A stretch of DNA of 64,000 nucleotides from a virus (Duplodnaviria; Heunggongvirae; Uroviricota; Caudoviricetes; Herelleviridae). The position numbers and the translations under genes were made by a program. Shown in pieces: positions 1,356 through 21,175 of the stretch (position 1 is its first letter; every line of letters starts with the position of its first letter). Under the pieces are notes generated by a model that worked only from the letters and a program-made list of their open reading frames with translations, had not been told where the DNA came from and did not search any database. The stretch covers positions 91,054 through 155,053 of the IMG/VR virus record IMGVR_UViG_2974542590_000001; one strand, given 5' to 3'.

Positions 1356-2309
1356 TTACTTAAATGTACCCCATGCTTTCTTACCTACAGGTCGTATAGG
1401 GATGTAACGTCCATCGTTTGCATAAATCCAGATGTATCCCTCAGCAGACTTCCAACCAAGGTATCTCACAGATTGTCCCGGATACAATGGTGTAGCTGTT
1501 GGAGAAGATAAGCTTGGTTTGTTCTTACGGGTAGTAATAGGAGCATTACCATTAATAAACGTAGCTTCTTCCTTCGTAAATCCGGCAGGTAGTTTAGGTT
1601 TGCTTCCCCCAACTCTATCTGAACCATATCCACCTTCAATGTCTTGGGAAAGAACCCATCCAAGTACTGTTCCTTTATTTACAATCAAGTATTCTTGATT
1701 AGAGTAAGAATAAGAAATTGGTCGTTGTTGTTTAACGTCAAATGTACCGCCTTTGACAAAGCTTGCCATCTTAGAACCTTTACTTGATGGAGACCAGTTG
1801 GTAGCGTGTTTAAGTACTTTTACTTTTTTAGTGTTTGGTTTTGAAGGAGTGCTTCCACCGTTTAAACGATACACATACCAACCCATGCTATATGGACAAG
1901 TAGTTGCTTCGTTATCTACGTAAACACCGTTAGCCGTTGCTGATTTCCATGTACAGTGAATAATCTGTGTACTACTAATGAAGATAACCACGTGACCTGC
2001 GGAACCGCCACTTGCACCTTTTTTACCAAAGATAACAATGTCTCCACGTTTAGCTGACCATTCCTGATTTTGTGCAATCAGTTTAAAACCATTTTTTTCT
2101 AGCCAACTGTGCATACTATCTGTATTAAGTACCCAACCTGCATCACTAGCCCCTGCCTTACGTAAAGAATCATAGACAGTACCAGAGCAATCCCCTGTGC
2201 CATCTGCACCTGTTCGGGAGTAGTTCATTGAGTAAGTAATACCTCGTGCTTTCAGAGCGTACATGTTCGCAATTGCGGTTTCCATGTTAATGTTACTCAT
2301 AGCTATCAC
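1356..2309 (-). CDS. NlpC/P60-family peptidoglycan endopeptidase with C-terminal SH3b-like wall-binding domain
   Basis: A DCSG catalytic-Cys motif and a downstream GHVVIF His motif mark the N-terminal domain. The C-terminal ~120 aa ends ...YIPIRPVGKKAWGTFK, which is SH3b-like. Confidence 0.55.
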   Translation of the reverse strand: MIAMSNINMETAIANMYALKARGITYSMNYSRTGADGTGDCSGTVYDSLRKAGASDAGWVLNTDSMHSWLEKNGFKLIAQNQEWSAKRGDIVIFGKKGASGGSAGHVVIFISSTQIIHCTWKSATANGVYVDNEATTCPYSMGWYVYRLNGGSTPSKPNTKKVKVLKHATNWSPSSKGSKMASFVKGGTFDVKQQRPISYSYSNQEYLIVNKGTVLGWVLSQDIEGGYGSDRVGGSKPKLPAGFTKEEATFINGNAPITTRKNKPSLSSPTATPLYPGQSVRYLGWKSAEGYIWIYANDGRYIPIRPVGKKAWGTFK

Positions 2310-2403
2310 TTCCTGTTTGTTTTTAAGTTACAGTTATAATATAGCATAAGAAAAAGACCCCCTAAAAAGAGAGTCTTTTTTTAATCTATTAGTATTTATT
2401 ATT

Positions 2404-3048
2404 TTAGTACCAACCGTTAGCTAACCAGAAAGCTTGTGCATTTTCCCATGAACCATAACGTCCTGCAACATAAGCATCTGCTACACGTTCTTGGTTTTCT
2501 GGTGAGTAGTCACCGTTTAAGTAAGATGAATCTAGTTGGTAACGTCCAATGTAACGTCCGTTAGTAGCTGAGTAAGAACCGCTAGATTCTTTTTGTGCAA
2601 TCCATTCTTTTGCTGAGTTAGATGTAACGGCAGGAGCTTGTTCTACTGGTTCTTGAACAACTGGTGCCTGTTCAACTACAGGTGTTTCTTCTACTACAGG
2701 TGTTTCTTCTACTACAGGCGCTTGTTCTACAACTGGTGTTTGTTCTACAACTGGTGCTTCTTGCACTGGTTGAGCTACAGGAGCTTGAACTTCACCGTTT
2801 AATGGTAATAATAGTTTGTCTCCAACATAAATCAAGTTAGCATCTGAAACTTTGTCTGAGTTTGCTTGGTGAATTAGGTTAAAATCAATTCCGTAACGAT
2901 TACCAATAGTTGATAATGTATCTCCGGATTCTACTTGCCAGTAAGTTTGTCCATTTTCTTGGATTTCGTCTGCGTGAGCTTTAGCTCCCAATCCTAATGA
3001 TAGTCCTAGTCCTAAAAGTCCTAATGTTGCAATTGTCGTTTTCTTCAA
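2404..3048 (-). CDS. secreted LysM-domain protein with Pro/Glu/Val-rich linker and Apf-like C-terminal domain
   Basis: Signal peptide MKKTTIATLGLLGLGLSLGLGAKA. LysM signature ...YWQVESGDTLSTIGNRYG.... Repetitive linker (PVVEQ)n. C-terminus ...AQAFWLANGWY resembles the Lactobacillus aggregation-promoting-factor family. Confidence 0.55.
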   Translation of the reverse strand: MKKTTIATLGLLGLGLSLGLGAKAHADEIQENGQTYWQVESGDTLSTIGNRYGIDFNLIHQANSDKVSDANLIYVGDKLLLPLNGEVQAPVAQPVQEAPVVEQTPVVEQAPVVEETPVVEETPVVEQAPVVQEPVEQAPAVTSNSAKEWIAQKESSGSYSATNGRYIGRYQLDSSYLNGDYSPENQERVADAYVAGRYGSWENAQAFWLANGWY

Positions 3049-3205
3049 GTTGTCGTTCTCCTTTGGGTTGTTTTAGTTTTATGTGTTGCTTACAGGAACT
3101 AATATAGCAAATTAATATTACAAAGGTAGTCCTAAATCATTACAGTTCTATTACATATTATTACAGTAATAAAAAAGACCCACCCGAAGGTAGGTCATTG
3201 TACTG

Positions 3206-4474
3206 TTACAATTTGTTAGTTCCACCAAGTTGTAACTGGTCAGAAATTCCTGTATTCCCTAATGGGTCGGAGCAGTAACGACTTAGGATATAGATGTCTT
3301 TACCACGTGCAGGAGATTTAGCATCTAGTGCATGAGCAAAAGCAAATCTACAGTTTCCTCGTTGCGCAATCGTTCCGTCATATAGTTTTTGAATATCAGG
3401 AGAAGCCTTGAATGAAGATTTTGTAACATCAAAACGTACGATTTCTTTATTTGTTTTCTTATCCATAATGAATAAGAAATGTTTGTCAGTATCTCTACGT
3501 TTAGAAGATAAGTGCCATCCGTGTAGTGTTACCTGACCTTTGTCACCTCTGATTACGTCTAAACAACCACGGTTAATTAATGCAGGGGCTTTAAAGACTT
3601 TATCTTTTACGTAAAGCTCTTCTTTGCTATCGTTGTTATAACGTAACAAGAAGTAATACTCTTTACCCATAAGATTTTGTGGAGTTAAGCCATTAACAGT
3701 AAAACCAACTTCTGCCCCGTTAGGGTTAGATGGGTATACTTTTTTAACGTCTTCACGAACTACACGTTTACCTTGGAAACGCCCAATTTCTTTGTTTGTA
3801 GCTTTATCCATAAAGTACAACCAGATAGATTGCCCTTTTGTAGACTTGCTAGGAATGAACCATCCTTGTACGTTAAATGCACCAGAGTTTACATTCACAA
3901 TATCAAAGAATGCTTGACGACCGTTTGTTTGACTAGGCTTAGGTGCGCTGTTATTTCCACCTGCCATAAATTGTTTTGCTTGGCGTACAACTTCGTCTAC
4001 GTTCATACCTCCGGGACATGCTGTTGAAGTCACTTCGTTATGACCTAAGACATGTTGGCGGTCACATGGGATACCGTAACGTTTACAAATATCTGCTACT
4101 AATCGAGCACAGTTTGTAACCGTACGAGGGTCAATTGACCAGTTAGGAGCACCACTTGAATTTAAGTTTTCGATACCGATTGAGCGTTGGTTAGGGTTAG
4201 ACATCTTAGGAATATCTGCACCACCAGTTCCTCCTGCGTGCCACGCTGCATATTGTTCACCTACGCAACCGATAATCTCTGTTGGAGTAACCTCATAGTG
4301 AGCAGATGTACCTGCACTACCACCCGCTACCCATGTGTTCATAGCAACATCCTTGTTTGTTGTTGCGTTGTGATGTAGAACAATGCGGTCAATAGCAATA
4401 CCGTTACGACTACCAGAGTTCATCAGTTTAGGGTTAACGCTTGTAATTAAATTACTAAATACTTCGCCTGCCAT
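3206..4474 (-). CDS. N-acetylmuramoyl-L-alanine amidase (amidase_2/PGRP) endolysin with two C-terminal binding repeats
   Basis: The amidase_2 region reads ...IDRIVLHHNATTN...AHYEV...CPGG. Two ~60-aa paralogous C-terminal repeats (..WLYFMDKATNKEIGRF.. and ..FLFIMDKKTNKEIVRF..). AGGAGG RBS 7 nt upstream of the ATG at 4474; the ORF track's 4501 start lacks an RBS. Confidence 0.65.
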   Translation of the reverse strand: MAGEVFSNLITSVNPKLMNSGSRNGIAIDRIVLHHNATTNKDVAMNTWVAGGSAGTSAHYEVTPTEIIGCVGEQYAAWHAGGTGGADIPKMSNPNQRSIGIENLNSSGAPNWSIDPRTVTNCARLVADICKRYGIPCDRQHVLGHNEVTSTACPGGMNVDEVVRQAKQFMAGGNNSAPKPSQTNGRQAFFDIVNVNSGAFNVQGWFIPSKSTKGQSIWLYFMDKATNKEIGRFQGKRVVREDVKKVYPSNPNGAEVGFTVNGLTPQNLMGKEYYFLLRYNNDSKEELYVKDKVFKAPALINRGCLDVIRGDKGQVTLHGWHLSSKRRDTDKHFLFIMDKKTNKEIVRFDVTKSSFKASPDIQKLYDGTIAQRGNCRFAFAHALDAKSPARGKDIYILSRYCSDPLGNTGISDQLQLGGTNKL

Positions 4475-6606: not shown

Positions 6607-6710
6607 GTAAACGTCTCCTTTATTGTTATGACAAGAAAAATAACTAGTGCTATTATTGACAAGTAGTATAATAGCATATTATTTTTTGTCAATCAATAGC
6701 TAATTTGATA

Positions 6711-6843
6711 AAAATGTCCTATTTTAAATTTTTGTCTCCCTTATATAATATATTATACTATATATACTTAATAACTAGATATAGGTATATAGATATATAG
6801 TATTAATATATAAGGACGTAGAAAAATTAAAATAGGACATTTT
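6711..6843. repeat. palindromic element: 22-bp inverted repeat (AAAATGTCCTATTTTAAATTTTT / AAAAATTAAAATAGGACATTTT) flanking ~88 bp of TATATA-rich DNA
   Basis: Arms read directly at 6711-6733 and 6822-6843. A second copy at 13804-13939. The core motif is also present as a palindrome inside terL intron 1 (7728-7750). Confidence 0.7.
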
Positions 6844-6849
6844 GCTTTT

Positions 6850-7488
6850 TTAAGTAAATTGAGTAAAAATATCAGGAGGTGTAGGGTTCAATTGAGTAGA
6901 AATCCAATCAGAGTTAAACCCGTAGTCATCTGCCCCTGTAAATACGTTCATCAAATGTTCATAACCTAACATGGAATAAACACTAGCTTGTGAATAGTGG
7001 TCATCACCTTTACGTCCAATAGTTTGTCGGAATCCTGTAGGAGATTTTTCATCCTCTTCATCACGAATTACTACATTTCCCCAGTGTTCAATGTAAAGCA
7101 TTAGTTCACTATCCATTTTATGGTAGAAACCAATAACTCCATCTTTCATGTTTGAGATGTATCGTTTATTCTGCATTAGCTTATCAGCAGATACCTTGTT
7201 ACCTTGAACATTCCAACTAGGCACTAAGTTACCTGTAGATTTAGGTGTAGATGGATATACACAACCAAATACACGGTCTTTACCATAAATCTGAATCAGT
7301 TTAGCAACTTTATCACCAGAGTCACCAACATCAGCAACGATAATATCAGGTTCATATGGTGCTAATTGTAATCGAATTGACTGAATATCTGTATCAATTG
7401 CATCAGGGTTTAACGGGTTAGCTTTACCTACAGAGAACAATTTAATTAAATCTACTTGACCATTCGTTCTAACGCCATGAATGGACAC
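6850..7488 (-). CDS. terL: terminase large subunit, last exon (nuclease domain); the reading frame probably continues upstream toward ~7676
   Basis: The ORF starts MSIHGVRTNG... and contains ...IIVADVGDSGDKVAKL..., an RNaseH-like terminase nuclease-domain pattern. Upstream of the first Met at least the next ~5 codons (to ~7503) are open. The stretch 7504-7676 was not verified stop-free and does contain in-frame-candidate stop triplets. Confidence 0.6.
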   Translation of the reverse strand: MSIHGVRTNGQVDLIKLFSVGKANPLNPDAIDTDIQSIRLQLAPYEPDIIVADVGDSGDKVAKLIQIYGKDRVFGCVYPSTPKSTGNLVPSWNVQGNKVSADKLMQNKRYISNMKDGVIGFYHKMDSELMLYIEHWGNVVIRDEEDEKSPTGFRQTIGRKGDDHYSQASVYSMLGYEHLMNVFTGADDYGFNSDWISTQLNPTPPDIFTQFT

Positions 7489-7676
7489 CCAGTGTCTGTT
7501 TCCCCAGTCAATACCTACAGAGATAAACTTGTAATCTCCACGGTCTCTAGGAGATTCTGGGAGGTCTCCACGTCTATTACGTTCTACGTCACTAGCATTA
7601 ACAGTAAGTTTCTGGTCAGCATATGGATACGAATTACCGCTACTTTCGTAGTATTTTGTTACTGCTCTTAGCAGTC

Positions 7677-7949
7677 GGACTAGACTATATCATAACCCTT
7701 AGTTTAGGTTAAGGGTTCTCTGCTTTACATGTCCTATTTAAAATAGGACATTTTTATCTAGTTCTTGGCTACTCCATTTAGTAGCTTACCTAGAAATTTA
7801 GTCGTTAGGCATTTATGCACTTACAGTGCAATTTAGCACGGGATTCCCACTGTCCTATTTTAGGATTTAGGGTCTCTTATCAGGATATTGGTTATTTTCC
7901 TATGCCCGTTTAACAGAGTTTTCGACAATTGTTACCAATTGAAGGGGCG
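7677..7949 (-). mobile_element. group I intron (td-like IA2 core, no ORF) within terL
   Basis: On the minus-strand RNA: ...GTAATCCCGTGCTAAATTGCACTGTAAGTGCATAAATGCCTAACGACTAAA... and a 3' ...GATATAGTCTAGTCCG. These match the AATCCCGTGCTAAATTG / GCCTAACGACTA / GATATAGTC blocks as I recall them from the T4 td intron (recalled sequence, not checked here). Boundaries approximate. Confidence 0.6.
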
Positions 7950-8360
7950 TTACTCACCCAATGTATAGTTATAGAACGCTTGTTTTGATAGTGATGTTAA
8001 TTCTTTTGTTTTTAATTGGTCAGCAGATACCCAAACAGCGTTCATTTGAGAAATCATGTATCCTCTAATACCTAAACCATTTTTAGTACGGTCTGGATAT
8101 TTAGGAACCCATATACCATTGTACCAACGGTCTAATGGTTCTCCACATTTTTGACAAACGAATTGGAAAGAGCCATCCACAACTGTTTTAGCAATTGGGT
8201 CTACCCCTTTAGGGTTTACACAAAGGATGTTCCCTCTACGTTCCACTGGTGCCTCTGGTACATAGTCTTCATAGTTCATTTGGTTATAATGATTACACTT
8301 ATCACATTTGTGTAGATACCAGTATTGGTCAGACTGTTCAAACAAAGCATGGATGCCCAC
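7950..8360 (-). CDS. terL: terminase large subunit, internal exon
   Basis: 136-aa ORF (..ILCVNPKGVDPIAKTVVDGS..) bounded on both sides by intron-core sequence. Confidence 0.55.
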   Translation of the reverse strand: MGIHALFEQSDQYWYLHKCDKCNHYNQMNYEDYVPEAPVERRGNILCVNPKGVDPIAKTVVDGSFQFVCQKCGEPLDRWYNGIWVPKYPDRTKNGLGIRGYMISQMNAVWVSADQLKTKELTSLSKQAFYNYTLGE

Positions 8361-9653
8361 ATCTGGTGCGCTCGAATGTACCGTAGCTTTCGCTATACTT
8401 TAACACTACCTTAGGTAGTCGGACTAGACTATATCATACCCTATCTGATAGGGCTTCTGCTTTACATTGATTTACCTTGTTAACAATATGTTGCTCAATA
8501 GATTTCTCAGTCATCAAATAATTCACACGTAGTAGGTTAATGTGATTTTCCTCTGCGTACTCTGTTTTTTGCTTGTCTCGTCTTTGTTGAGATGCTAATT
8601 TTTTATCTCCACCAAAGTAAGCCACAGGTTTAAAATGTTGCACACCATCATATTCGATTAACAAGTTGCAATCGGGGATATAGAAGTCGAATCTTAGGTA
8701 AGAGCCATTGTTCTTTAAATCTTCGTATCCTTTTTGTAACTCGTAAGGAATTTTATGATTGTCTAATATTTTAGTAACAAGTTGCTCTCCTTTGGATTGT
8801 TTACAACGGGGACAACGGTTACCTCTAAGAAAATCTTTAGGTGTAACAGCATAGGTAAACCCACAAGCTATATGAGTAACCTCTACTTTTGTATGATTAT
8901 TTTTGTACTGAGATACAAGCTTGTATTCACCATTTGACAGCTCAGTTACTTCCTGACTAAACTGTTCTGTACTTTTACGTTTCGTTCCATAACAGTTTGG
9001 ACATCTACGACCTCTTAAAAAGTCTTTCGGTGTCATTTCGAATGTAGTTCCACAAGTATGATGCAAAATTTTAATTTTTTTAAAGCTCCGTATATACGGA
9101 GTAATCTGTGTGTACTCTATACCCGCTACTTGCTTAAACCGTTCTGCAAAGTCTTTCGGGTCAGTAGTATTTATTTTGCAATGACATCTACGGTTATCGT
9201 AGATAAAGTGGTTAGTGGTTGTCTCAAATGTTTCTCCACATTCTGCATGGTAAAACGTAACTTTTTGGTTACCTCGCACATAATCTGAAACTCTTTTGTA
9301 CTCGGCTCCTACAAGGTCATATATCCTTTTGTCAATATCTTCATTAGTAATTTTTTTAGCCATTTCCTACCTCCTACAATGTATAATATAGCATACATAC
9401 CGTAGTTGGGGGCAGTTAGGCTAAACTGGTAAATCAACTTTTATAGGCTTAGCAAACTAGTGTTTACTGCACCTAAGTTTAGTCGTTAGGCATTTACAAG
9501 CTTACGCTTGATTTAGCACGGGATTACCTCTATCCTTTAAGGACTTAGGCTCTCTTATCAGCTTATTCCTCCTTACAAATGAGTAAGGTTGGTTATTTTT
9601 GTGTACTTTCAGCTTTGCCCGTTTAACAGAATTTTTCAAAGGTCATTACTGAC
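8361..9653 (-). mobile_element. group I intron within terL carrying a homing-endonuclease ORF
   Basis: The same conserved core blocks as the 7677-7949 intron (tagtcgttaggcatttacaagc...atttagcacgggattacctc... on the + strand), with the HE ORF 8434-9363 in a peripheral loop. Boundaries approximate. Confidence 0.55.
8434..9363 (-). CDS. intron-encoded homing endonuclease: tandem CxxC zinc-finger repeats plus C-terminal PD-(D/E)xK nuclease motif
   Basis: The zinc-finger repeats read HTCGTTFEMTPKDFLRGRRCPNC and IACGFTYAVTPKDFLRGNRCPRC. The C-terminal nuclease motif is ..RFDFYIPDCNLLIEYDGVQHF... Paralogous to the ORFs at 10124-11044 and 54471-55202. Confidence 0.6.
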   Translation of the reverse strand: MAKKITNEDIDKRIYDLVGAEYKRVSDYVRGNQKVTFYHAECGETFETTTNHFIYDNRRCHCKINTTDPKDFAERFKQVAGIEYTQITPYIRSFKKIKILHHTCGTTFEMTPKDFLRGRRCPNCYGTKRKSTEQFSQEVTELSNGEYKLVSQYKNNHTKVEVTHIACGFTYAVTPKDFLRGNRCPRCKQSKGEQLVTKILDNHKIPYELQKGYEDLKNNGSYLRFDFYIPDCNLLIEYDGVQHFKPVAYFGGDKKLASQQRRDKQKTEYAEENHINLLRVNYLMTEKSIEQHIVNKVNQCKAEALSDRV

Positions 9654-10034
9654 CTAAGCCCCAATTAGTTTAGGGGTGCTCCAACGAGTAACAATCTTAT
9701 ATGGAGAAGATGACATAGATTCCAATGCAGAAGCTTCGGCTAATGCAGGAACACGGTCGTACTCGTCCATAGATAGGTAATCAATATCGACCCCTTCTAC
9801 AGCTCCCGGTTTAGAACTTGAACGGAAGTATAAAAAGCTATTACGAATCTTCTTAGCCTTTAATGAGTCTACTTCTGGGTCAATAATCGTACTGTAGTAA
9901 CCACGTTGTAATACTGGGTCAAGACGTGTTTGTACAAATTTAGTCATTTGTTCATTTGTTGGGAAGGTATACAAACACTTAACTGCATCGTAACTATGTG
10001 TATCTGCAAAGTGTAGCATGGTTCCTACACCCAT
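9654..10034 (-). CDS. terL: terminase large subunit, internal exon (Walker B region)
   Basis: The pattern ...KIRNSFLYFRSSSKPGAVEGVDIDYLSMDEYDRVP is similar to the T4 gp17 Walker B neighbourhood. Confidence 0.55.
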   Translation of the reverse strand: MGVGTMLHFADTHSYDAVKCLYTFPTNEQMTKFVQTRLDPVLQRGYYSTIIDPEVDSLKAKKIRNSFLYFRSSSKPGAVEGVDIDYLSMDEYDRVPALAEASALESMSSSPYKIVTRWSTPKLIGA

Positions 10035-11333
10035 TTCACTTACGTTATACCCTCGGTTTCCCGATATTTATTAGGGGACTAGACTATATCATCAACCTAA
10101 TTTTTGGTTTAGGTTGCTCTGCTTTACTTTATATTTTCTTCTAAGAATTTTTTAACATCTGATAGAGTTTTAACCGTATATGGAACTTCAATTAGATTAA
10201 AACCTTTAGCTTTAGCGTACTCTCTTTTTAACTCATCATTAATTTGCTGTAACTCAAACTTAATCTGGGCTTTTTCTTTTGACATACCTCCGAAGTTCTT
10301 ACACTTGAAGTGTTGTTCTCCTTGGTATTCGATAAGCAGTTTCTTACTCGGAACATAAAAATCATAAGATAGCTTGTTTATATTCTTTAAGTCATCAAAT
10401 GTTTTTTGCATTTCAAAAGATAGTCCGAGTTGAGTTAACACAGATTTAACAAGTTTCTCTCCGTTAGGCATGTTGCAGTACTTGCAAGAAACACCTTTGT
10501 AAATAACATCTGATAGTCGAGTATATGATATGTTACCACACATTTCATGTAGTATAGCTACCTTAGTTTGCATATTAGTGTACTCACCAATAATTTTAAA
10601 GTCAGTACCTATTGTCTCTTGCATTTTTCGTTCAGCTTCTTCTTTGGTTAACCTTAATGAATCCTTAGCGCATTTCGCACATCTAGTACCACATAGAAAG
10701 TTACCTGCTGATATTTTACATAAGGTTCCACATTTGTTGTGAATAATATCGATAGGTGTAGCTCTGTTTACATATTTACCAACTACAGTGTATTCATCGC
10801 CAACTAGTGCAAACACTTCTTTACTAAAAGTCTTTGTGTCTTTTCTAGTAGCATTGTTACCAAAACATTGGGGACAACGACTCTTAGAAAGCCTGTTGGG
10901 TGTTGTGGTGTATATGTTTCCACAAGTATTATGTCTAACCTTGATTGGGACGTTTGACTTTATATAAGGTTCTAGTGGAGTGTATTCATCCCCGTATACC
11001 TTATACAAGTCAGCTAAAAATTCTTCATTTGTTTTTCTTCTCATTCGTGATGCAACTCCTTAGTGCTTTCTATATGTAATATAGCACACATTAAGTTTTG
11101 TCAGTTGACATCATAAGAAAATATATTTTTTTATCTAGTTCTCACTAACCCCATTTGGTTAGCTACCTAGAAATTTAGTCGTTAGGCATTTATGCACTTA
11201 CAGTGCAATTTAGCACGGGATTACCTCTATCCCTTTCGGGACTTAGGTTCTCTTATCAGCTTATTGGTTATTCAGCTATGCCCGTTTAACAGAGTTTTCT
11301 TTACAAATCGCTTTATAAAGGGGCTAATCTTAA
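10035..11333 (-). mobile_element. group I intron within terL carrying a homing-endonuclease ORF; inserted in the Walker A codons
   Basis: The conserved core lies at 11150-11300 (+ strand tagtcgttaggcatttatgcacttacagtgcaatttagcacgggatt). A 3' GATGATATAGTCTAGTCC lies at ~10070-10090. The exon-1 ORF ends ...IKSRQLG just upstream. Confidence 0.55.
10124..11044 (-). CDS. intron-encoded homing endonuclease (zinc-finger + PD-(D/E)xK family)
   Basis: Repeated C-x2-C motifs, and a C-terminal ..KLSYDFYVPSKKLLIEYQGEQHF.. matching the 8434-9363 paralog. Confidence 0.6.
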   Translation of the reverse strand: MRRKTNEEFLADLYKVYGDEYTPLEPYIKSNVPIKVRHNTCGNIYTTTPNRLSKSRCPQCFGNNATRKDTKTFSKEVFALVGDEYTVVGKYVNRATPIDIIHNKCGTLCKISAGNFLCGTRCAKCAKDSLRLTKEEAERKMQETIGTDFKIIGEYTNMQTKVAILHEMCGNISYTRLSDVIYKGVSCKYCNMPNGEKLVKSVLTQLGLSFEMQKTFDDLKNINKLSYDFYVPSKKLLIEYQGEQHFKCKNFGGMSKEKAQIKFELQQINDELKREYAKAKGFNLIEVPYTVKTLSDVKKFLEENIK

Positions 11334-11600
11334 CCCAAGCTGTCTACTTTTGATTACAGCTTTAGTTCGGTGTTGGTCATTAATAATTTTTACTTGCCAA
11401 GGTCTATGCGCTTGGGCTTTTTGTTGGTCACGTCCGGAAATCATAAATGTAATCGGATGATTACGAACGGAGTGGTTTCTTAGTAAATATGTGGACGGGG
11501 TTAACATGTCTGTGATGTAGGCAAGCTGTGCAGTTGTTATTTTGTCCGTCCCATACATTTCTTTTGCCATTTTAGCAATATGTTGTGCTTTATTTGTCAT
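11313..11600 (-). CDS. terL: terminase large subunit, first exon; the trailing 7 codons are intron sequence
   Basis: The ORF translation ends ...TKAVIKSRQLG LRLAPL*. SRQLG is the start of the SRQLGKT Walker A motif known from T4 gp17. The ATG overlaps the upstream stop. Confidence 0.55.
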   Translation of the reverse strand: MTNKAQHIAKMAKEMYGTDKITTAQLAYITDMLTPSTYLLRNHSVRNHPITFMISGRDQQKAQAHRPWQVKIINDQHRTKAVIKSRQLGLRLAPL

Positions 11601-13755: not shown

Positions 13756-13803
13756 GAGGGCATTTTGCTCTCTTTCTTTTTATCTAAAAGTGAATTGTCA
13801 GAA

Positions 13804-13939
13804 AAATGTCCTATTTTAATTTTTTGCAAGTCTTATATATATTAATAATATATAGTCTAATATTTATATAATTTAGATATATAGATTTAATATATAGTAT
13901 TAAGTATATAAGGAGGTCAAAAATTTAAAATAGGACATT
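13804..13939. repeat. second copy of the palindromic element (AAAATGTCCTATTTTAATTTTTT ... AAAAATTTAAAATAGGACATT)
   Basis: Arms at 13804-13826 and 13919-13939. Internal TATATAAGGAGG as in the 6711-6843 copy. Confidence 0.7.
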
Positions 13940-14146
13940 AATTTGAATATTCTGATAATTTAACTATTTATAATCTTTTTTGAACTTTTTGTATTTAGTT
14001 GTTGTCAGGATGATAAAAATGTTGTATACTTTAGTTAGTGATTGACATACCTCAATTACTTCCTCTTTCTTTAAGTCTTTAACTATTGAGTAAGTTGCTG
14101 AATCAGTAGTTAAGAAAAAAGTTGTTAAGTTTGTAAAAAAGTTGCT

Positions 14147-14815: not shown

Positions 14816-14887
14816 TGTTAGGTCGTCTAACAGGTAAGACACAATTCTTCGGAAATTGTGATACAGGTTCGAACCCTGTCCTGACAG
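14816..14887 (+). tRNA. tRNA-Arg (anticodon TCG)
   Basis: Hand fold: acceptor TGTTAGG/CCTGACA (one GU pair), D stem GTCT/AGAC, anticodon stem CAATT/AATTG with loop CTTCGGA, T arm ACAGG-TTCGAAC-CCTGT. Confidence 0.6.
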
Positions 14888-14901
14888 TTGTACAGTTACG
14901 G

Positions 14902-14995
14902 CTGTACAAACTATGTTTCTATGTTATAATGGTTGTAGGCTTTTAGAGACATCTCTCTTACCCCTGTTTAATTACAGGGGTTCCCTTTTTGCTTT
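14902..14995 (+). terminator. two hairpins downstream of tRNA-Arg (TTGTACAG-ttacgg-CTGTACAA, and CCCCTGT-ttaatta-ACAGGGG followed by TTCCCTTTTT)
   Basis: Read directly. The second hairpin has a U-rich tail. Confidence 0.45.
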
Positions 14996-15000
14996 TGGAA

Positions 15001-15098
15001 GGTTACTCGAATGGTTAAGAAGTGTTTAATTTGGTATCAGCCAAAGATATTGCAAACAATGACAACATCAGAGTGCAATTACAGAATATCTTCCATCA
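15001..15098 (+). ncRNA. degenerate type-II (Ser-like) tRNA-like element
   Basis: 5' GGAAGGTTACTCGAATGGTTAAGAAG is near-identical to the 5' end of the tRNA-Ser at 21089. The 3' ATCTTCCA can pair with the 5' end, but no canonical T loop is found. Confidence 0.25.
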
Positions 15099-15119
15099 AA
15101 AAAAAATAAAAAAACTTAC

Positions 15120-16230
15120 AAAAAGGTGTTTACAACTTTGTAATGTTATGCTATATTAGTATTACACCACAAGTTAGTGGTTAAAAATTGAAAACTTAAT
15201 AGATTTTGAACCTAGTGCAGAAAGTTTGAACAGCTTGCTAGGATAACGTGGCGTGAATCTGGATGTAACCGAAGGTGCGATAGTGCTTTTGGTTGCAGGT
15301 AGGTCTTATGGTAACATAGGAGTAACTATTAGTAAAAGCTAATATCAGTTAAGCGTTATGTGGAGTATACATGGATTGTAAGGTACAAGACTCTTGGGGG
15401 ATACAATAGACGTTCCTGTGGAAAAGAATCCAAGTTAGGTGGAAGTGTGAGAAGCTTGGCAGACCTTGGAAAACTCAAAAGACTCCCTTTGACGAGAACT
15501 GTAGAAATACAGGTTTAACAAGAGACCTTGGTACAAGTAGCTTAAGTCAGCGTTGGATGAAAATATTACAGAAGACATAAGGATATATGTTAATTAATAC
15601 TTTTAATAGCTGAATGTTTAGGTGAACGTTGTTAGCCACCGTGCTAGACCATACATTAAAGGCAGAGAGAAGCTATCGGGTAGCTCCCGATGGTTCAGCC
15701 TCTCTGAGTATGTGACCGAATGCAGTGAGTGTATATGAAGCAGGAAGAAAAGCCCTTAATCTATTAAGTTTTGAGTTTTTAAACATGTCACTGTGGCGGA
15801 AGTAGAAAATGCTATGGTAGTAAACCTGTTATGAGTAGTTTTTATCTATTAAGTTAACACTTTAATAGGCGTGAGTGGGGCAGTACCACTCCAGTGACTT
15901 AAAGAACCTACGGAAACAATCAATCTTATCGGATGCCGATTGGTTGGCTGAATTAAGCAGTGTGTCTGTGAATCAGTTAATAGGCATAAAATACTAGCAC
16001 AGACGTGTGCCACTCTCAGGTGTAGGTTAGGAGAGAAACATTAGCAACCGAGGGTTGGAAATGGGCGCTCAAAGTACACGAGCAAGGCGATGTCGGTAGT
16101 AATCGACGGAATCGGTGTAGGTTGCTTGATAGAGCTATAACTGCATCTCGTTTATGCGATGTGTTTTTTACAGATTAAATCATTCTAAGAGTGGTATTTT
16201 TATTTTACATAAAGGAGAGAATTTTCTCTT
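15120..16230 (+). ncRNA. ~1.1-kb ORF-free, GC-elevated, highly structured region
   Basis: No ORF of 60 aa or more on either strand, although flanking DNA is densely coding. TTTACA-N17-TATATT promoter at its 5' end. Multiple inverted repeats, e.g. CAGAGAGAAGCTATCGGGTAGCTCCCGATGG...CTCTCTG. Confidence 0.3.
15789..15907 (+). ncRNA. tRNA-like element bounded by GTCACTG...CAGTGAC (paralog of the 20515-20644 element)
   Basis: 5' GTCACTGTGGCGGAAGTAG... and 3' ...AGTGG-ggcagta-CCACT-CCAGTGAC. The same closing helix and TGGCGGAA motif occur at 20515. Confidence 0.3.
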
Positions 16231-16249
16231 TATTATTTTTATAGAAAGT

Positions 16250-16285
16250 GTTGACTTTCTGTACAACACATGATACTATAAGTTT
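16250..16285 (+). promoter_or_regulatory. phage promoter GTGTTGACTT-N17-TATACT
   Basis: gtgttgactttctgtacaacacatgatactataag. It lies upstream of the tRNA block. Confidence 0.5.
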
Positions 16286-16422
16286 ACAAGGTAAGCAGTA
16301 AGGGCTTGTAAGGTTCGAATCCTTAATTACCTATTCCACTTTTAATAGTGGCATGATTTAATTTCTATCTCTCATTATCTTACATTTTTCGGAGGGTTGC
16401 TAGTCCCTCCCCTCCGAATCTT

Positions 16423-16494
16423 GCGCTGTTGGTGTAGTGGCTATCATTTCCGGCTCCAACCCGGAAGACGGGGGTTCGAATCCTTCACGGCGTG
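16423..16494 (+). tRNA. tRNA-Trp (anticodon CCA)
   Basis: Anticodon stem TCCGG/CCGGA with loop CTCCAAC, D loop GTAGTGG, T arm GGGGG-TTCGAAT-CCTTC, and the acceptor pairs with GU pairs. Confidence 0.6.
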
Positions 16495-16636
16495 TATTTT
16501 TGGACAGCGGTGATAGTTATAGTGTATTATCCTTCACAGGAATGAATTACTGGTATGTAGCACTCTACTGGTAATTGTTGAAGAATGTGACGTGTTTACA
16601 AGATTAAAGTCATTCCGCCCCTCTCCATTGAAACAA

Positions 16637-16710
16637 GCTGATATTCCGTAATTGGTAACGGGACACACTTGTAATGTGTATACTTCTAGGTTCGAGTCCT
16701 AGTATCAGCA
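16637..16710 (+). tRNA. tRNA-Thr (anticodon TGT)
   Basis: Acceptor GCTGATA/TATCAGC is a perfect pairing. Anticodon stem ACACA/TGTGT with loop CTTGTAA. T arm CTAGG-TTCGAGT-CCTAG. Confidence 0.7.
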
Positions 16711-16812
16711 TTGTGAGCGGAAACTCACAAATTTATGTTTTGGTTGATTAATTGGTTATCTAGTTAGTTAGCGTGAACATTGCATACAGTTATCTATATA
16801 GAATTTTATCAA

Positions 16813-16884
16813 TAAGCTAGTTTTGTGTCTAGTGGTCTATGTGAGCTTCATAACCTCATGGCGGTTCGATTCCGTAAGGCTTAA
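16813..16884 (+). tRNA. tRNA with CAT anticodon (Met or Ile2); the D arm is weak
   Basis: Anticodon loop TTCATAA in a 4-bp stem. T arm GGCGG-TTCGATT-CCGTA. Acceptor TAAGCTA/AGGCTTA. An alternative perfect pairing GCTAGTT/AACTAGC suggests an extended precursor helix. Confidence 0.4.
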
Positions 16885-16902
16885 CTAGCTATTGGTAATC
16901 TT

Positions 16903-16976
16903 ATCTCCTTAGCTCAGTTGGTGGTAGCACCTGATTCTTAATCAGGGGGTCACAGGTTCGAATCCTGTAGGGGATA
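16903..16976 (+). tRNA. tRNA-Lys (anticodon CTT)
   Basis: Acceptor ATCTCCT/AGGGGAT, D loop AGCTCAGTTGGTGGTAGC, anticodon stem CCTGA/TCAGG with loop TTCTTAA, T arm ACAGG-TTCGAAT-CCTGT. Confidence 0.7.
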
Positions 16977-16978
16977 TT

Positions 16979-17052
16979 CTCGAAGAGTTGGTGTATGGCT
17001 TTGGTAACACGCCTCTTAGGAGGAGCAGGCAGTTCAAATCTGTCAGTCGAGA
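16979..17052 (+). ncRNA. tRNA-like element (T arm + acceptor) with no recognisable anticodon arm
   Basis: T arm GGCAG-TTCAAAT-CTGTC and 5/7-bp acceptor pairing CTCGAAG/AGTCGAG. The central region folds as CCTC-ttag-GAGG rather than an anticodon stem-loop. Confidence 0.3.
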
Positions 17053-17110
17053 CCCTTAGTTTTTCTATTAGTAACGGTTTTTCGAGAGGGTTATCTTGAA
17101 AAACACAACT

Positions 17111-17184
17111 GTCTCCATAGCTCAATCGGCTAGAGCACTCGACTTTTAATCGAGGGGTTCGGGGTTCAAATCCCTGTGGGGACA
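17111..17184 (+). tRNA. tRNA-Lys (anticodon TTT)
   Basis: Acceptor GTCTCCA/TGGGGAC, D stem GCTC/GAGC, anticodon stem CTCGA/TCGAG with loop CTTTTAA, T arm CGGGG-TTCAAAT-CCCTG. Confidence 0.8.
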
Positions 17185-17284
17185 TCGGTTAGTACATTAT
17201 GGTGCCACGGGTGTTTTGTAAGAGGGCACTTACAAGATAAATAAAGCAAGACAGCTTGCTTCCTGCGTAATTACTAACCTAGAA

Positions 17285-17357
17285 CGGCAGTTCGTCCAAT
17301 TGGCTAGGATGCTAGACTACGAATCTAGTGATAGAGGTTCGATTCCTCTGCTGTCGG
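17285..17357 (+). tRNA. tRNA-Arg (anticodon ACG)
   Basis: Acceptor CGGCAGT/GCTGTCG, anticodon stem CTAGA/TCTAG with loop CTACGAA, T arm AGAGG-TTCGATT-CCTCT. Confidence 0.7.
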
Positions 17358-17365
17358 TTAACATA

Positions 17366-17463
17366 CGGGAGTGGCGTGAGGCATACGCACCGTGGAAGAC
17401 ACGGGGAAGTTAATAATTCATGAATAAACCTTCCAATATCGCAGGTTCGAATCCTGCCTTCCG
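17366..17463 (+). ncRNA. 98-nt tRNA-like gene with long extra arm and 5-nt loop where the anticodon loop is expected
   Basis: Acceptor ACGGGAG/CTTCCGT, D stem GCGT/ACGC, extra arm GGAAG...CTTCC, T arm GCAGG-TTCGAAT-CCTGC. The stem CCGTG/CACGG closes the loop GAAGA. Confidence 0.3.
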
Positions 17464-17469
17464 TATAAA

Positions 17470-17500
17470 ATGCGGGTGTCAGAGGTTCAAATCCTCTCAC
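17470..17500 (+). ncRNA. isolated tRNA 3' fragment (T arm AGAGG-TTCAAAT-CCTCT + CACAGGT) with no 5' partner
   Basis: Only ~18 nt separate it from the preceding gene, and no complementary 5' acceptor strand was found. Confidence 0.3.
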
Positions 17501-17593
17501 AGGTATTTGCCTTAATTGGAAAACTATGACCTGTCGTTAGTTTACGTCTTACACTTTTGTGAAGAAACGTTTTTCGGGAGGTAGCTTTTATAT

Positions 17594-18031
17594 ATGAATG
17601 GAGGGGCAATTATGACATATAAAGTGTTACACGGAGAGGACAGTTTAGCGCCTCTGCTATGGACATTTTTTATTAGAGACGGACTATCTGTATCAGAAAC
17701 AGAAAGTTATAAATGTGTTGGTCAACGAGGACTAAATACAGATTATGTTCCACATGAACTAAGCCTTGATACACCTGTTATCTTTTATGAAATGAAGAGT
17801 ACTGTAGTATTTAAATGTGTTAACGGTGTGCAGGAAAAAACACCTTGTTTATTTTTTGATACATCCGAAAAAACTTGTTGTATTACGGAAGAACTATATG
17901 ATATTCTTGAAGAACTATATGGAACTGATATTTATTTCCTAGCTAAAACACTTGACCCAGAATTAGCATTGTCCTCCGTTTATTCAGAAGGTTGGTTATC
18001 TACTTTTATAGAGTTGAGACAGCAGGTTTAG
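17594..18031 (+). CDS. hypothetical protein
   Basis: 145-aa ORF with a GGAGG RBS region. Confidence 0.45.
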   Translation: MNGGAIMTYKVLHGEDSLAPLLWTFFIRDGLSVSETESYKCVGQRGLNTDYVPHELSLDTPVIFYEMKSTVVFKCVNGVQEKTPCLFFDTSEKTCCITEELYDILEELYGTDIYFLAKTLDPELALSSVYSEGWLSTFIELRQQV

Positions 18032-18106
18032 CACACAATAATAAGGAGTGGTTCCTGTGAAGAAAGTATTGTCTAAATTGTAAGTATCTATTAAGGAGGA
18101 CTTACA

Positions 18107-18358
18107 ATGAGTAGAAGTTACAGAAAACCCTATTACCGTTATGTTTGTATGAAGGATTCAACTGTTCGAGACATAAAAAGAATGGTTAACAGAAATTACA
18201 GGCATAAATTAAATCAAGGTCGTTTTGATGACGAAGTAACATTGACACATCATAAACGAGTAGAAGAAACTTGTTGGACGTATGATATGAAAAAATTTTA
18301 TGCTCACGAGGAAGATTACAAGGATAATAATTTTTATCATAAATTGAGAAGAAAGTAG
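18107..18358 (+). CDS. hypothetical basic protein
   Basis: AAGGAGGA RBS. 83 aa, Arg/Lys/Tyr-rich. Confidence 0.5.
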   Translation: MSRSYRKPYYRYVCMKDSTVRDIKRMVNRNYRHKLNQGRFDDEVTLTHHKRVEETCWTYDMKKFYAHEEDYKDNNFYHKLRRK

Positions 18359-18366
18359 GTAATATC

Positions 18367-18588
18367 TTGAAAGCAGATTATGTAGTTGCAGGAGACTGGG
18401 AAGGCATTTATCTTGATGATAAGCTTCAAGTAGAAGGACACAGTATACAAACACCAGATGCAATGAAACTTACTATTGAAAACGAAGTAACGGAGTTAAC
18501 TGTTTACGAGATTGACCAAGAGTATATGGAAGAGCTAGGTTCTCTACCAGAAAGTTTCTCTCAATTAGATTCGTCAAAACTTTTTTAA
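18367..18588 (+). CDS. hypothetical acidic protein
   Basis: 73-aa ORF, start uncertain. Confidence 0.4.
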   Translation: MKADYVVAGDWEGIYLDDKLQVEGHSIQTPDAMKLTIENEVTELTVYEIDQEYMEELGSLPESFSQLDSSKLF

Positions 18589-18599
18589 ATAAATTTATA

Positions 18600-18635
18600 T
18601 GTAAGTGTTGACTTTCCTTACAAGATGCTGTATAG
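18600..18635 (+). promoter_or_regulatory. phage promoter GTGTTGACTT-N17-TATAGT upstream of tnpB
   Basis: gtgttgactttccttacaagatgctgtatagtaattc. Confidence 0.5.
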
Positions 18636-18808
18636 TAATTCTTGTAAGGAACACATGATGGTGACTGTAGCCTAATGGTAAGGCAGTGTTCTGTGGAAAG
18701 AAATGTTCTGGTCTAAAAATTTTTGTCTTTTGACAACCGGCGGTGCACCCATCGGCGTCATAAAGAAATATATTCAGAATCAAGGGAACAATCATAAATA
18801 GAAAGCAG

Positions 18809-19960
18809 GTGAGCCTTATGGAACGACTAAAAGCATACAAATTCAGAATCTATCCAACAGAAGAACAAGAAATATTCTTTGCCAAATCTTTTGGTTGTGT
18901 CCGTAAGGTCTACAATCTAATGCTTGATGACCGAATGAAAACTTATGAAGAAACGAAGAATGACCCCTCTAAAAAAATGAGTTTTCCAACACCTGCGAAA
19001 TATAAAAATGATTTTCCGTTTTTGAAAGAAGTGGACAGTCTTGCTCTAGCCAATGCCCAACTTAATTTAGATAAAGCATATAAGAATTTCTTTCGAGATA
19101 AATCCGTTGGATTTCCTCGATTCAAAAGTAAGAAGAATCCAGTTCAAAGTTATACGACTAATAATCAAAATGGAACAATTGCTTTGATTGATAATAAATT
19201 TATCAAAATTCCTAAGTTGAAGTCACTAGTTAGAATCAAACTTCATAGACAGCCTAAAGGAATCATTAAGTCAGCTACAATATCACGTCATTCAAGTGGT
19301 AAATATTATATTTCCTTATTGTGTAAAGAAGAAATTATAGAATTACCTAAAACTAATTCTACAATTGGTATTGACTTAGGTATTATGGACTTTGCGATTC
19401 TTTCTGACGGACAAAAAATTGATAATAATAAATTCACGTCCAAAATGGAAAAGAAATTGAAACGTGAACAACGTAAGTTGTCTAGACGAGCTTTGGTAGC
19501 TAAAAAGAAAGGCGTAAACCTTTCTGAAGCTAAAAACTACCAAAAACAAAAACGTAAAGTCGCTCGTTTACACGAAAAAGTAGTGAATCAACGTACTGAT
19601 TTTCTGAATAAGTTGAGTACAGAAATTATCAAAAACCACGATATTATCTGTATTGAAGACTTAAACACAAAAGGTATGTTGCGTAATCATAAATTAGCAA
19701 AAAGTATTTCTGATGTGTCTTGGTCTAGTTTTGTAACTAAATTACAATACAAGGCTGACTGGTATGGACGAAAAATCATTAAAGTAGATAAATGGTTTCC
19801 ATCAAGTCAAATTTGTTCAGAATGTGGACATAAAGATGGCAAGAAATCTCTCGAAATTCGAGAATGGACTTGTCCTATTTGCCATACCCGACATGACCGA
19901 GACATCAACGCTAGTATAAACATTCTGAACGAAGGTCTACGAATACAATCACTAGTTTAG
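18809..19960 (+). CDS. tnpB: TnpB (IS200/IS605-family OrfB, RNA-guided RuvC nuclease)
   Basis: N-terminus MERLKAYKFRIYPTEEQE. C-terminal zinc finger CSECGHKDG...CPICHTRHDRDINASINIL (RuvC-III). GAGCC RBS. No tnpA nearby. Confidence 0.8.
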   Translation: MSLMERLKAYKFRIYPTEEQEIFFAKSFGCVRKVYNLMLDDRMKTYEETKNDPSKKMSFPTPAKYKNDFPFLKEVDSLALANAQLNLDKAYKNFFRDKSVGFPRFKSKKNPVQSYTTNNQNGTIALIDNKFIKIPKLKSLVRIKLHRQPKGIIKSATISRHSSGKYYISLLCKEEIIELPKTNSTIGIDLGIMDFAILSDGQKIDNNKFTSKMEKKLKREQRKLSRRALVAKKKGVNLSEAKNYQKQKRKVARLHEKVVNQRTDFLNKLSTEIIKNHDIICIEDLNTKGMLRNHKLAKSISDVSWSSFVTKLQYKADWYGRKIIKVDKWFPSSQICSECGHKDGKKSLEIREWTCPICHTRHDRDINASINILNEGLRIQSLV

Positions 19961-20160
19961 ATAAAAACAATAACCGTAGGAACTACGGGGATAGCTTGGT
20001 AAATAAGAGACACCGCTGTTAGTAAAAAAATAAACTATCAAGTATGCTCTATTCCCAAGAAGCTCCCACTTCAAGCGTAAGAAACCGCTAGGTTTAGCTA
20101 AGTGGTGAGTAGTTCACCCCATTCATAAGAAAAATGTTGATATATAAAGTGGTATTTTTT
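19930..20160 (+). ncRNA. expected omega-RNA / right-end region of the TnpB element (boundaries undefined)
   Basis: Placed by inference from TnpB-system architecture: the guide RNA scaffold overlaps the 3' end of tnpB and the right end. The sequence here is ORF-free and structured. Confidence 0.25.
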
Positions 20161-20449
20161 CAGAAGTGGGAAATCATAAATAATCTAGTTCACAAAGTGA
20201 TTATGTGGGTATGGCGGAATTGGTATATGATGTGAACTTCTCAGTTCAAGTCTGGGTGGAGGTATTACACATATAAAATAAAGTGCGAGGTCAATCATAT
20301 CATTACGATAGTGGATTGAATGATTAGGGTAAAAGACTAACAATCTCCTAATCTAAGAATAGGTAAGTTCCGTTAAATGTCACCCGTGTCCGTCTAAGTA
20401 CGTAAGGTAGAAGTTACACAAAGACAACTTTATTTTATTGGTTCCTTAG

Positions 20450-20515
20450 TGTAGTGGTTATCACATCGCCCTGTCACGGCGAAGATCACAGATTAAATTC
20501 CCGTCAGTTCCATAG
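20450..20515 (+). pseudogene. degenerate tRNA-Asp (GTC)
   Basis: 5' two-thirds is canonical (GGTTCCTTAGTGTAGTGGTTATCACATCGCCCTGTCACGGCGAAG). The T arm (CACAG-ATTAAAT-TCCCG) and 3' acceptor (CAGTTCC instead of AGGAACC) are not. Confidence 0.4.
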
Positions 20516-20644
20516 TCACTGTGGCGGAATAGGTAGACGTATAAGTAGCCAATACTAAAAACGTAGGGTATTTGGAGCTTATTTGAGGGATAGATAGGCG
20601 ACGGCTCGTTCCCAACTGCAAGGTGCAAATCCTTGCCAGTGACA
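20515..20644 (+). ncRNA. tRNA-like gene (Leu-like 5' end GTCACTGTGGCGGAATAGGTAGACG) with ~60-nt internal insertion
   Basis: Perfect acceptor GTCACTG/CAGTGAC and T arm CAAGG-TGCAAAT-CCTTG. The interior is far longer than any variable arm. Confidence 0.3.
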
Positions 20645-20807
20645 TAGACTGCCTTTGTCAAGCAGTCGAATCTTAACTAATTTTTTCACTAAATAAATAT
20701 CGAATTGTGGCTGATTTCTACGGATTCAGAGCGGAGCATCCCCGCAGGTTGGGCATACTACAGTCCCCCCATGATGCTTCATGGGTTATACATAGTTAGG
20801 GGGTAAC

Positions 20808-20993
20808 ATGATGTATTTAAAATTCATTGGTTTAAACGGAAGTTTAGGTTTAGTGAAGGACAAGACATACTTTGTTACCTCTGAGATAAATGAACATTAT
20901 ATTATTTTGAGAATACATGGTGTTCACGGTAGGACAGTAATGTGTCCGTACGAAGCATTAGAAAAAGTGTTAGAAAATTGGCAGGTCTGTTAG
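20808..20993 (+). CDS. hypothetical small protein
   Basis: 61-aa ORF after a GGGGG RBS. Confidence 0.4.
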   Translation: MMYLKFIGLNGSLGLVKDKTYFVTSEINEHYIILRIHGVHGRTVMCPYEALEKVLENWQVC

Positions 20994-21088
20994 TATGCAG
21001 ATAGTAGGGTGTGCATAAAGCCTAGGGAACAATATGCACAGAAGATTAGGTATTGTGTACTTGACACAAACCCGCCTGCTCCCGAGAC

Positions 21089-21175
21089 GGAAGGTTACTC
21101 AAACGGTAAAGAGGCTTGGTTGGAAACCAAGTAGATGTGTAACAGCATGTGTGGGTTCGAATCCCATGCCTTCCA
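21089..21175 (+). tRNA. tRNA-Ser (anticodon GGA), type II
   Basis: Acceptor GGAAGGT/GCCTTCC, anticodon stem CTTGG/CCAAG with loop TTGGAAA, long variable arm, T arm GTGGG-TTCGAAT-CCCAT. Confidence 0.6.

Follow-up and report, generated by a model that had tools for sequence, protein, structure and literature searches.

Three td-like group I introns very probably interrupt the large terminase subunit gene in Enterococcus phage EFP01

In the 64,000-nt stretch of Herelleviridae DNA analysed here (the window; IMG/VR record IMGVR_UViG_2974542590_000001, positions 91,054 to 155,053), the terminase large-subunit gene (terL) does not appear as a single open reading frame (ORF). Four minus-strand ORFs at 11313-11600, 9654-10034, 7950-8360 and 6850-7488 each encode a segment of the protein (TerL), separated by three gaps, two of which hold a further ORF. 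The question raised by this locus is whether the pieces are exons of one gene, joined after removal of the intervening RNA, or separate genes with separate products. A preliminary description, made from the sequence alone, proposed three group I introns similar to the intron of the T4 td gene. The evidence presented below leads us to regard it as very probable that terL is here one gene carrying three mobile group I introns, all of the IA kind known from phages and resembling that of T4 td.

Exon boundaries and the intron fold

The region of 4.85 kb matches Enterococcus phage EFP01 (KY549443.1 / NC_047796.1; Herelleviridae, Brockvirinae, Schiekvirus) at 100% identity. An uninterrupted terL is seen in several close relatives, for example vB_Edu_21C1, where it is a single coding sequence (CDS) of 1836 nt, and the exon/intron junctions were set by aligning the window to this gene (Table 1). 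Joining the exons conceptually gives 1836 nt, the same length as the uninterrupted gene, and a TerL of 611 aa identical in amino-acid sequence to that of vB_Edu_21C1. The four ORFs are consecutive TerL segments in a continuous spliced frame, as first described, and the pieces number exactly four, not possibly more. The ORF limits differ from the exon limits, and the frame beyond each 5' splice site reaches an in-frame stop after 1-6 codons. The ORF-less gap, originally placed at 7677-7949, is wider in the alignment, where it corresponds to intron 3.

An element shared by the three gaps was located by direct-repeat analysis and profile searches. One copy is present per gap, in agreement with the block noted in the preliminary description, and it consists of a 5' half of ~170-190 nt (nhmmer E 5e-50, 1e-45 and 6e-35) and a 3' half of ~85-95 nt (E 8e-24, 2e-19 and 5e-18). 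A search of the 64-kb window found no further copies of this intron family beyond the three terL gaps and no other group I introns at E <= 0.05.

To describe the RNA structure, an explicit IA fold was written by hand for intron 3, comprising P2, P3, P4, P5, P5a, P5b, P6 and P6a followed by the P7 pseudoknot, P7.1, P7.1a, P8, P9.0, P9 and P9.1. It was projected on a MAFFT alignment of 15 introns, namely the three of EFP01 (with the ORFs cut from two) and homologs from Enterococcus, Listeria, Staphylococcus, Bacillus and Lactobacillus phages. Standard pairs occupy 93.4% of the cells, compared with 31-43% when the partners are slid by 1-3 columns, and changes on both sides are found at 48 of the 73 pairs versus 12-15 in the slid controls; none of 500 shuffles equalled any observed pairing measure. 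Covariation is seen at every position of P8, P7.1a, P9.1 and P6a, and P7.1 with P7.1a is 97-100% paired, with compensatory changes. P7 is uninformative in this respect because it is invariant. RNAalifold, blind to the hand fold, finds P3, P4, P5, P5a, P5b, P6, P6a, P7.1a, P8, P9.0 and P9.1 (51 pairs, 36 of them compensatory), and intron 3 folded alone reaches -87.4 kcal/mol (z = -6.5), with most helices of the hand fold reappearing. The predicted P7.1/P7.2 pair sits between P7 and P3', and the introns are on this structural basis assigned to subgroup IA. P7.2 is a hairpin in intron 3, and it is the site of insertion of a homing endonuclease gene (HEG) in introns 1 and 2 and in the related intron of phage 113. 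This hairpin (7729-7751), where related introns hold the endonuclease gene, is itself an inverted repeat without a spacer between its arms.

The covarying IA fold with P7.1/P7.2 agrees with the td-type introns originally proposed, and the core blocks that it ascribed to td do occur letter for letter, at the corresponding places, in T4 td (M12742.1): AATCCCGTGCTAAATTG (P4'-P6), GCCTAACGAC (P6'-J6/7-P7) and GATATAGTC (J8/7-P7') are exact blocks common to td and the EFP01 introns. The td intron, of subgroup IA2 and carrying I-TevI, likewise has P7.1/P7.2 between P7 and P3', and the 5' exon terminus UUGGGU is common to td and EFP01 introns 1 and 3. In overall nucleotide similarity, no T4 match to the EFP01 introns was obtained by blastn, and nhmmer matches short blocks only. 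The ORF positions also differ, as that of td (a GIY-YIG endonuclease) lies in P6a whereas those of EFP01 (predicted to be VSR-like) lie at P7.2 and reach P3'/P8. A two-hairpin P5 region is present in the EFP01 introns and sets them apart from td.

At all three EFP01 introns the last base is T for the 5' exon and G for the intron; the terminal G is also found in 11 homologous introns of the family, those with resolvable boundaries. The internal guide sequence complements the 5' exon end with a U.G pair at the junction, as GGGU/GCCC in introns 1 and 3 and CCCU/GGGG in intron 2. Over at least five exon contexts the guide tracks the exon (GGGT/GCCC, CCCT/GGGG, ATTCCCT/GGGGAAT, TCGT/GCGA and GTCTGGAT/GTTCAGAC), with the P1 pairings of SIOphi introns 1-2 and of SBSphiJ6 read by eye from the alignment only, on account of protein indels.

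The exons themselves carry a record of the introns. Between EFP01 and vB_Edu_21C1 there are 52 nucleotide differences, all synonymous, and they cluster at the junctions: nt 231-273 hold 21 of them and nt 631-648 another 10. Four terL alleles were compared, one without introns, one with site 3 only, one with sites 1 and b, and one with sites 1, 2 and 3. Exon recoding is present exactly at the intron-occupied sites, and the base at -1 is T at every occupied site, whereas alleles in which site 1, b or 2 is empty have C, A or A there. Such recoding and the -1 T are as expected from co-conversion plus a splice-site requirement, and mere fracture of the gene would not yield the pattern. The co-occurrence of recoded exon flanks with an intron may also be read as an indirect sign of site-specific cleavage of the intron-less allele.

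Table 1. Features of the interrupted terL locus and its surroundings, in window coordinates
Feature	Position	Strand	Length	Details
terL exon 1	11333..11600	minus	268 nt	aa 1-89 and first base of codon L90; from 21C1 alignment and conceptual splice; 3' end AAA AGT AGA CAG CTT GGG T, coding KSRQLG(L), last base T
Intron 1	10043..11332	minus	1290 nt	group I, IA type; terminal G10043; guide GCCC 11324-11321; 5' ribozyme half ~11299-11133; 3' half 10128-10048
Intron 1 ORF	10124..11044	minus	306 aa	three treble-clef/CapR-type repeats and C-terminal VSR-like nuclease (predicted); phrog_559 E 5e-76
terL exon 2	9672..10042	minus	371 nt	remainder of codon 90 through aa 213; ends ...RWSTP
Intron 2	8373..9671	minus	1299 nt	group I, IA type; terminal G8373; guide GGGG 9662-9659 (pairs with exon CCCU); 5' half 9635-9445; 3' half 8466-8379
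Intron 2 ORF	8434..9363	minus	309 aa	VSR-like homing endonuclease (predicted); phrog_559 E 5e-88
terL exon 3	7956..8372	minus	417 nt	aa 214-352; has CxxC...CxxC; ends ...FYNYTLG
Intron 3	7630..7955	minus	326 nt	ORF-less group I intron; terminal G7630; guide GCCC 7948-7945; P7 7803-7799 with 7687-7683; P7.2 hairpin 7751-7729
terL exon 4	6850..7629	minus	780 nt	includes stop; aa 353-611; C-terminal region
Junction-spanning TerL peptide				example from conceptual splice: QLGLSEMGVGTMLHFADTHSYDAVK
ATGT(G/A)TGCTATATTA	11072-11091	minus		~30 nt before intron 1 ORF
ATGT(G/A)TGCTATATTA	9379-9398	minus		~30 nt before intron 2 ORF
ROOL RNA	15187-15773	plus		full-length; RF03087, 264.8 bits, E 2e-59
tRNA gene cluster	14816-21175	plus		eight genes
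AT-rich intergenic element, copy 1	6702-6845		~140 bp	83% identity to copy 2
AT-rich intergenic element, copy 2	13800-13945		~140 bp

The conceptually spliced protein and the putative intron-encoded endonucleases

The spliced TerL is assigned from its sequence to the lambda-gpA type of large terminase, with a match to Pfam PF05876 (GpA_ATPase) over aa 75-250 (E 1.9e-15); direct and profile searches of TerL against the Protein Data Bank (PDB) gave nothing useful. Its Walker A motif, K84-S-R-Q-L-G-L-S91, has the lambda-type deviant form K-S-x-x-x-G-x-S, the published motifs being KSA-R-VGYS in lambda and LS-R-QLGKT in T4 (PMC6379665 Table 1). Intron 1 cuts codon L90 within it (KSRQLG|LS), so that an intron does lie inside the Walker A codons, as the preliminary description had recognised; the K(T/S) expected there after SRQLG is not what the conceptual splice gives, which reads LSE. 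The Walker B-like motif ascribed to segment 2 is probably YLSMD-E of exon 2, which fits Walker B plus the catalytic Glu as a motif pattern, and RWSTP just before intron 2 is possibly the ATPase coupling motif. A nuclease domain had been placed in segment 4. No Pfam nuclease-domain match was found on exon 4, and the assignment consequently relies only on its position and the conserved GIDWG motif.

Introns 1 and 2 contain an ORF each and intron 3 contains none, again as first noted. The two ORFs share 33% identity and are preceded by Shine-Dalgarno sequences, AAGGAG for intron 1 and AGGAGG for intron 2. That of intron 1 is 99% identical to the 'VSR endonuclease' of phage iF6, and its UAA stop is part of the conserved GUAAAGCAGAG block (J7.2/3-P3'). 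The final ~11 codons of the intron 2 ORF traverse P3' and P8 and enter J8/7. An AlphaFold (AF2) model of the intron 2 product has medium confidence (pLDDT 70.7), and the highest-probability PDB match of its C-terminal domain in Foldseek is the catalytic domain of I-Bth0305I (3r3p; prob 0.95, TM 0.55 on the target, E only 0.09). I-Bth0305I (EDxHD/VSR-like) is encoded, like the EFP01 ORFs, in a phage intron, and its catalytic domain is VSR-like, as is predicted for theirs; the EFP01 ORFs differ from it in an N-terminal DNA-binding region of three predicted treble-clef/CapR-type repeats. No Pfam HNH match was found for the intron ORFs, Pfam DUF559 is matched by the iF6 paralog only, and direct and profile sequence searches matched no PDB chain. 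The family phrog_559, named 'HNH' but with the VSR fold in CATH, has been reported specifically in terL introns (PMC11878797). We propose, with moderate confidence, that both ORFs encode VSR-like homing endonucleases and not HNH enzymes.

Intron 3 matches the site-3 intron of phage 113 on both flanks of a ~980-nt endonuclease cassette, which stands there in place of the 21-nt P7.2 hairpin and whose ORF is labelled 'group I intron-associated VSR homing endonuclease' in GenBank. A TGCTAT-containing element lies ~30 nt upstream of the HEGs in intron 1, intron 2 and phage 113, and has the form TGCTATATT in both EFP01 introns. The longer ATGT(G/A)TGCTATATTA is found before both EFP01 ORFs (Table 1), and a related TGCTATTATAAT element occupies the same position before the phage 113 intron ORF (~1820-1835 of locus L003). 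By its sequence the upstream element may be an extended -10 promoter, a resemblance suggesting that the endonuclease genes have a promoter of their own.

From these features the following pathway can be envisaged. The primary transcript would fold into three ribozyme cores, the guide of each pairing with the 4 nt that close the exon upstream, with a U.G pair at the splice site. Two guanosine-dependent transesterifications would then excise each intron, with its terminal G setting the 3' site, and the ligated mRNA would be translated into the 611-aa lambda-gpA-type large terminase. The VSR-like (I-Bth0305I-type) endonucleases of introns 1 and 2, predicted to be expressed from genes at P7.2 with their own ribosome-binding sites, would presumably cut intron-less terL alleles in co-infection; repair would spread the intron and co-convert flanking exon sequence. 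Intron 3 would be the form, lacking an endonuclease gene, of an intron that has one in phage 113. That the introns are spliced in EFP01, that they are autocatalytic, that the endonucleases are active and that homing takes place is what we infer from the locus in this way.

Related introns and competing explanations

The intron family is present in 332 phage records, all Herelleviridae-type hosts. On the EFP01 TerL, mapped homologs define at least eight insertion sites, several of them in catalytic motifs: 73/74 (BE04, BE07), 89/90 in Walker A (EFP01, iF6, Listeria phage VEfB7, Bacillus phage SIOphi), 117/118 (EF24C, PSU6, iF6), 213/214 (EFP01, SBSphiJ6), ~305 (SIOphi), ~330 (Lb338-1), 352/353 (EFP01, phage 113, EF19G, PSU4) and 395/396 (SIOphi). 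All three EFP01 introns occur together only in the two EFP01 records of a 50,697-record collection, and we found no paper in the literature describing them.

The closest published case is SIOphi, whose terL splicing was demonstrated in vitro and in vivo, including exon skipping (Weglewska et al., NAR 2025, PMC11878797), whereas the EFP01 introns are known from sequence. Like EFP01, SIOphi is a Herelleviridae phage with three introns in terL; its introns a and b can be aligned as homologs with the EFP01 introns and have the IA core in common, and SIOphi intron 1 lies at KSRQLG|L, the identical site to that of EFP01 intron 1. SIOphi, however, belongs to Bastillevirinae and infects Bacillus, EFP01 being a Brockvirinae (Schiekvirus) phage of Enterococcus, and only site 1 is common to both, the others being 213/214 and 352/353 in EFP01 versus ~305 and 395/396 in SIOphi. 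The Herelleviridae phage Twort also has a single gene with three IA-type group I introns, orf142, but it belongs to another subfamily, the orf142 introns are without ORFs and the product is a tail tube protein. The Twort matches to the EFP01 intron 3 core fall under a terL annotation, and both the Twort terL introns and the three-intron Twort gene are older findings. The description of the locus as unusual is not supported: terL genes with two or three introns, VSR-type endonucleases and the same Walker A site are known in Bacillus, Listeria and other Enterococcus phages. The intron family, the Walker A site and the three-intron terL are already published for sister subfamilies, and current understanding is unchanged.

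Further members of the family were noted. In the terL of iF6 (locus L004) an 83-nt exon lies between two HEG-bearing introns (819-2108 and 2192-3483), which occupy the Walker A site and aa 117/118. In Enterococcus phage vB_Efa29212_3e (locus L014) a member at 153-455 scores 29.1 bits with the Rfam group I intron model RF00028 and has guide GCCGT versus exon ACGGT; it has no TerL-coding sequence on either side, so the family is found in at least one gene besides terL. In the Staphylococcus phages BE07 and BE04, the ORF-less terL introns carry a near-consensus sigma-70 promoter in the P6a loop (TTGACA, 16-nt spacer, TGATATAAT; alignment columns ~240-280), and at P7.2 of SIOphi intron a there is an insert that includes TTGACA.

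Several observations weigh against the interpretation of the EFP01 gaps as introns. None of the three was matched by RF00028 at its gathering score (50 bits); P1 is only 4 bp, and P10 is by inspection weak or absent; the endonuclease fold relies on the medium-confidence model (pLDDT 70.7) and the Foldseek E of 0.09; and four of the eight Bastillevirinae genes with confirmed splicing were spliced solely in infected cells, not in vitro (PMC11878797), so that autocatalysis is not to be assumed for each intron. The RF00028 check suggested in the preliminary description, negative at the curated threshold, gave matches below it, correctly oriented, in each of the three gaps, at 24.7 bits for intron 3 (over the full-length model), 20.4 bits for intron 1 (on its 3' part) and 14.3 bits for intron 2. 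The miss is not evidence of absence, because the T4 td intron, used as a control, also fails the cut-off with only 40.3 bits. All 12 family homologs from the loci of other phages score sub-threshold as well (20-49 bits), and these values together with that of td indicate that RF00028 lacks sensitivity for this subgroup and for introns that contain an ORF. An adjacent SIOphi terL intron of a different type scores 73 bits.

Among the alternatives, the one we take most seriously, although it is unlikely, retains three genuine group I introns of which at least one is not self-splicing, so that a protein cofactor from phage or host is needed or splicing is inefficient and limits or times TerL. The genes spliced only in infected cells (PMC11878797) and the 4-bp P1 with its weak P10 are consistent with it, as is the overlap of the intron 2 ORF with P3', P8 and J8/7, by which translation and folding could compete; against these stand the in vitro self-splicing of the homologous SIOphi terL introns (PMC11878797) and a highly conserved core with an invariant P7. 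Improbable in our estimate is that alternative splicing by exon skipping, as reported for SIOphi terL and for Twort orf142, yields further TerL isoforms that have their own function. Exon-skipped RNA predominated among the in vitro products of SIOphi terL, and in EFP01 the 3' ends of introns 2 and 3 are near-identical (CGGUACAUUCG / CGGUAAUUCG), introns 1 and 3 have a guide sequence in common, and a skip of exon 3 keeps the frame since nt 639 and 1056 are both codon boundaries. Skipping exon 2 or exons 2 and 3, however, shifts the reading frame, since the end of exon 1 is in phase 1, and loss of exon 3 deletes part of the gpA ATPase region, which makes a functional product doubtful. The idea that the three introns serve as a regulatory device, with GTP- or folding-dependent gating of terminase timing, or give an exon-3-skipped second isoform, appears to us slightly less probable still.

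That the gene is truly fractured, with four ORFs translated separately and the fragments assembling or only the largest piece working, we regard as very improbable. It would accord with the four 'terminase large subunit' CDSs in RefSeq and GenBank, with the in-frame ATG/GTG codons that happen to occur in exons 2-4, and with the iF6 paper, in which a 95-aa N-terminal CDS is taken as a non-functional remnant and only the long CDS as functional (PMC10054541). That paper misreads intron architecture as a truncated gene. In EFP01 the annotated pieces leave out 47 conserved exon 4 codons, FISVGIDWG among them, Walker A would be divided between two polypeptides, a ribozyme fold supported by covariation is found in the intervening RNA, the exon base at -1 is held to U only at intron-bearing sites, and exact excision gives a protein identical to the uninterrupted homolog, all of which argues against separate translation.

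Three other possibilities were considered. An intein is rejected in view of the stop codons 1-6 codons past each 5' junction; a group II intron is not supported, with no reverse-transcriptase ORF and a core of group I; and free-standing endonuclease insertion without an intron is rejected in view of the covarying ribozyme fold.

Annotation and neighbouring features

RefSeq and GenBank list two 'HNH endonuclease' CDSs beside the four terminase CDSs of EFP01 and no intron features. The last terL CDS in RefSeq begins at GTG 7488, 141 nt inside exon 4, which leaves the 47 codons at 7489-7629 (minus) in no CDS. The chief worth of the present finding is a corrected annotation, as a faulty TerL affects packaging-strategy prediction, phylogeny and proteome clustering of therapeutic Enterococcus phages. 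EFP01 adds Brockvirinae to the known pattern of terL as a hot-spot for IA-type introns in Herelleviridae, and natural sets of intron-plus and intron-minus alleles are available for homing studies.

Elsewhere in the window, a full-length ROOL RNA adjoins a cluster of eight tRNA genes (Table 1). Two copies of an AT-rich intergenic element are present, with ~18-nt inverted repeats AAAAATGTCCTATTTTAA / TTAAAATAGGACATT at the limits; the inverted repeat that makes up the P7.2 hairpin of intron 3, its arms directly adjoining, is the same one. The element may be a module of terminator and promoter, or else a small mobile element. The motif ATGTCCTATTTTA has 7 occurrences, compared with 0.27 expected.

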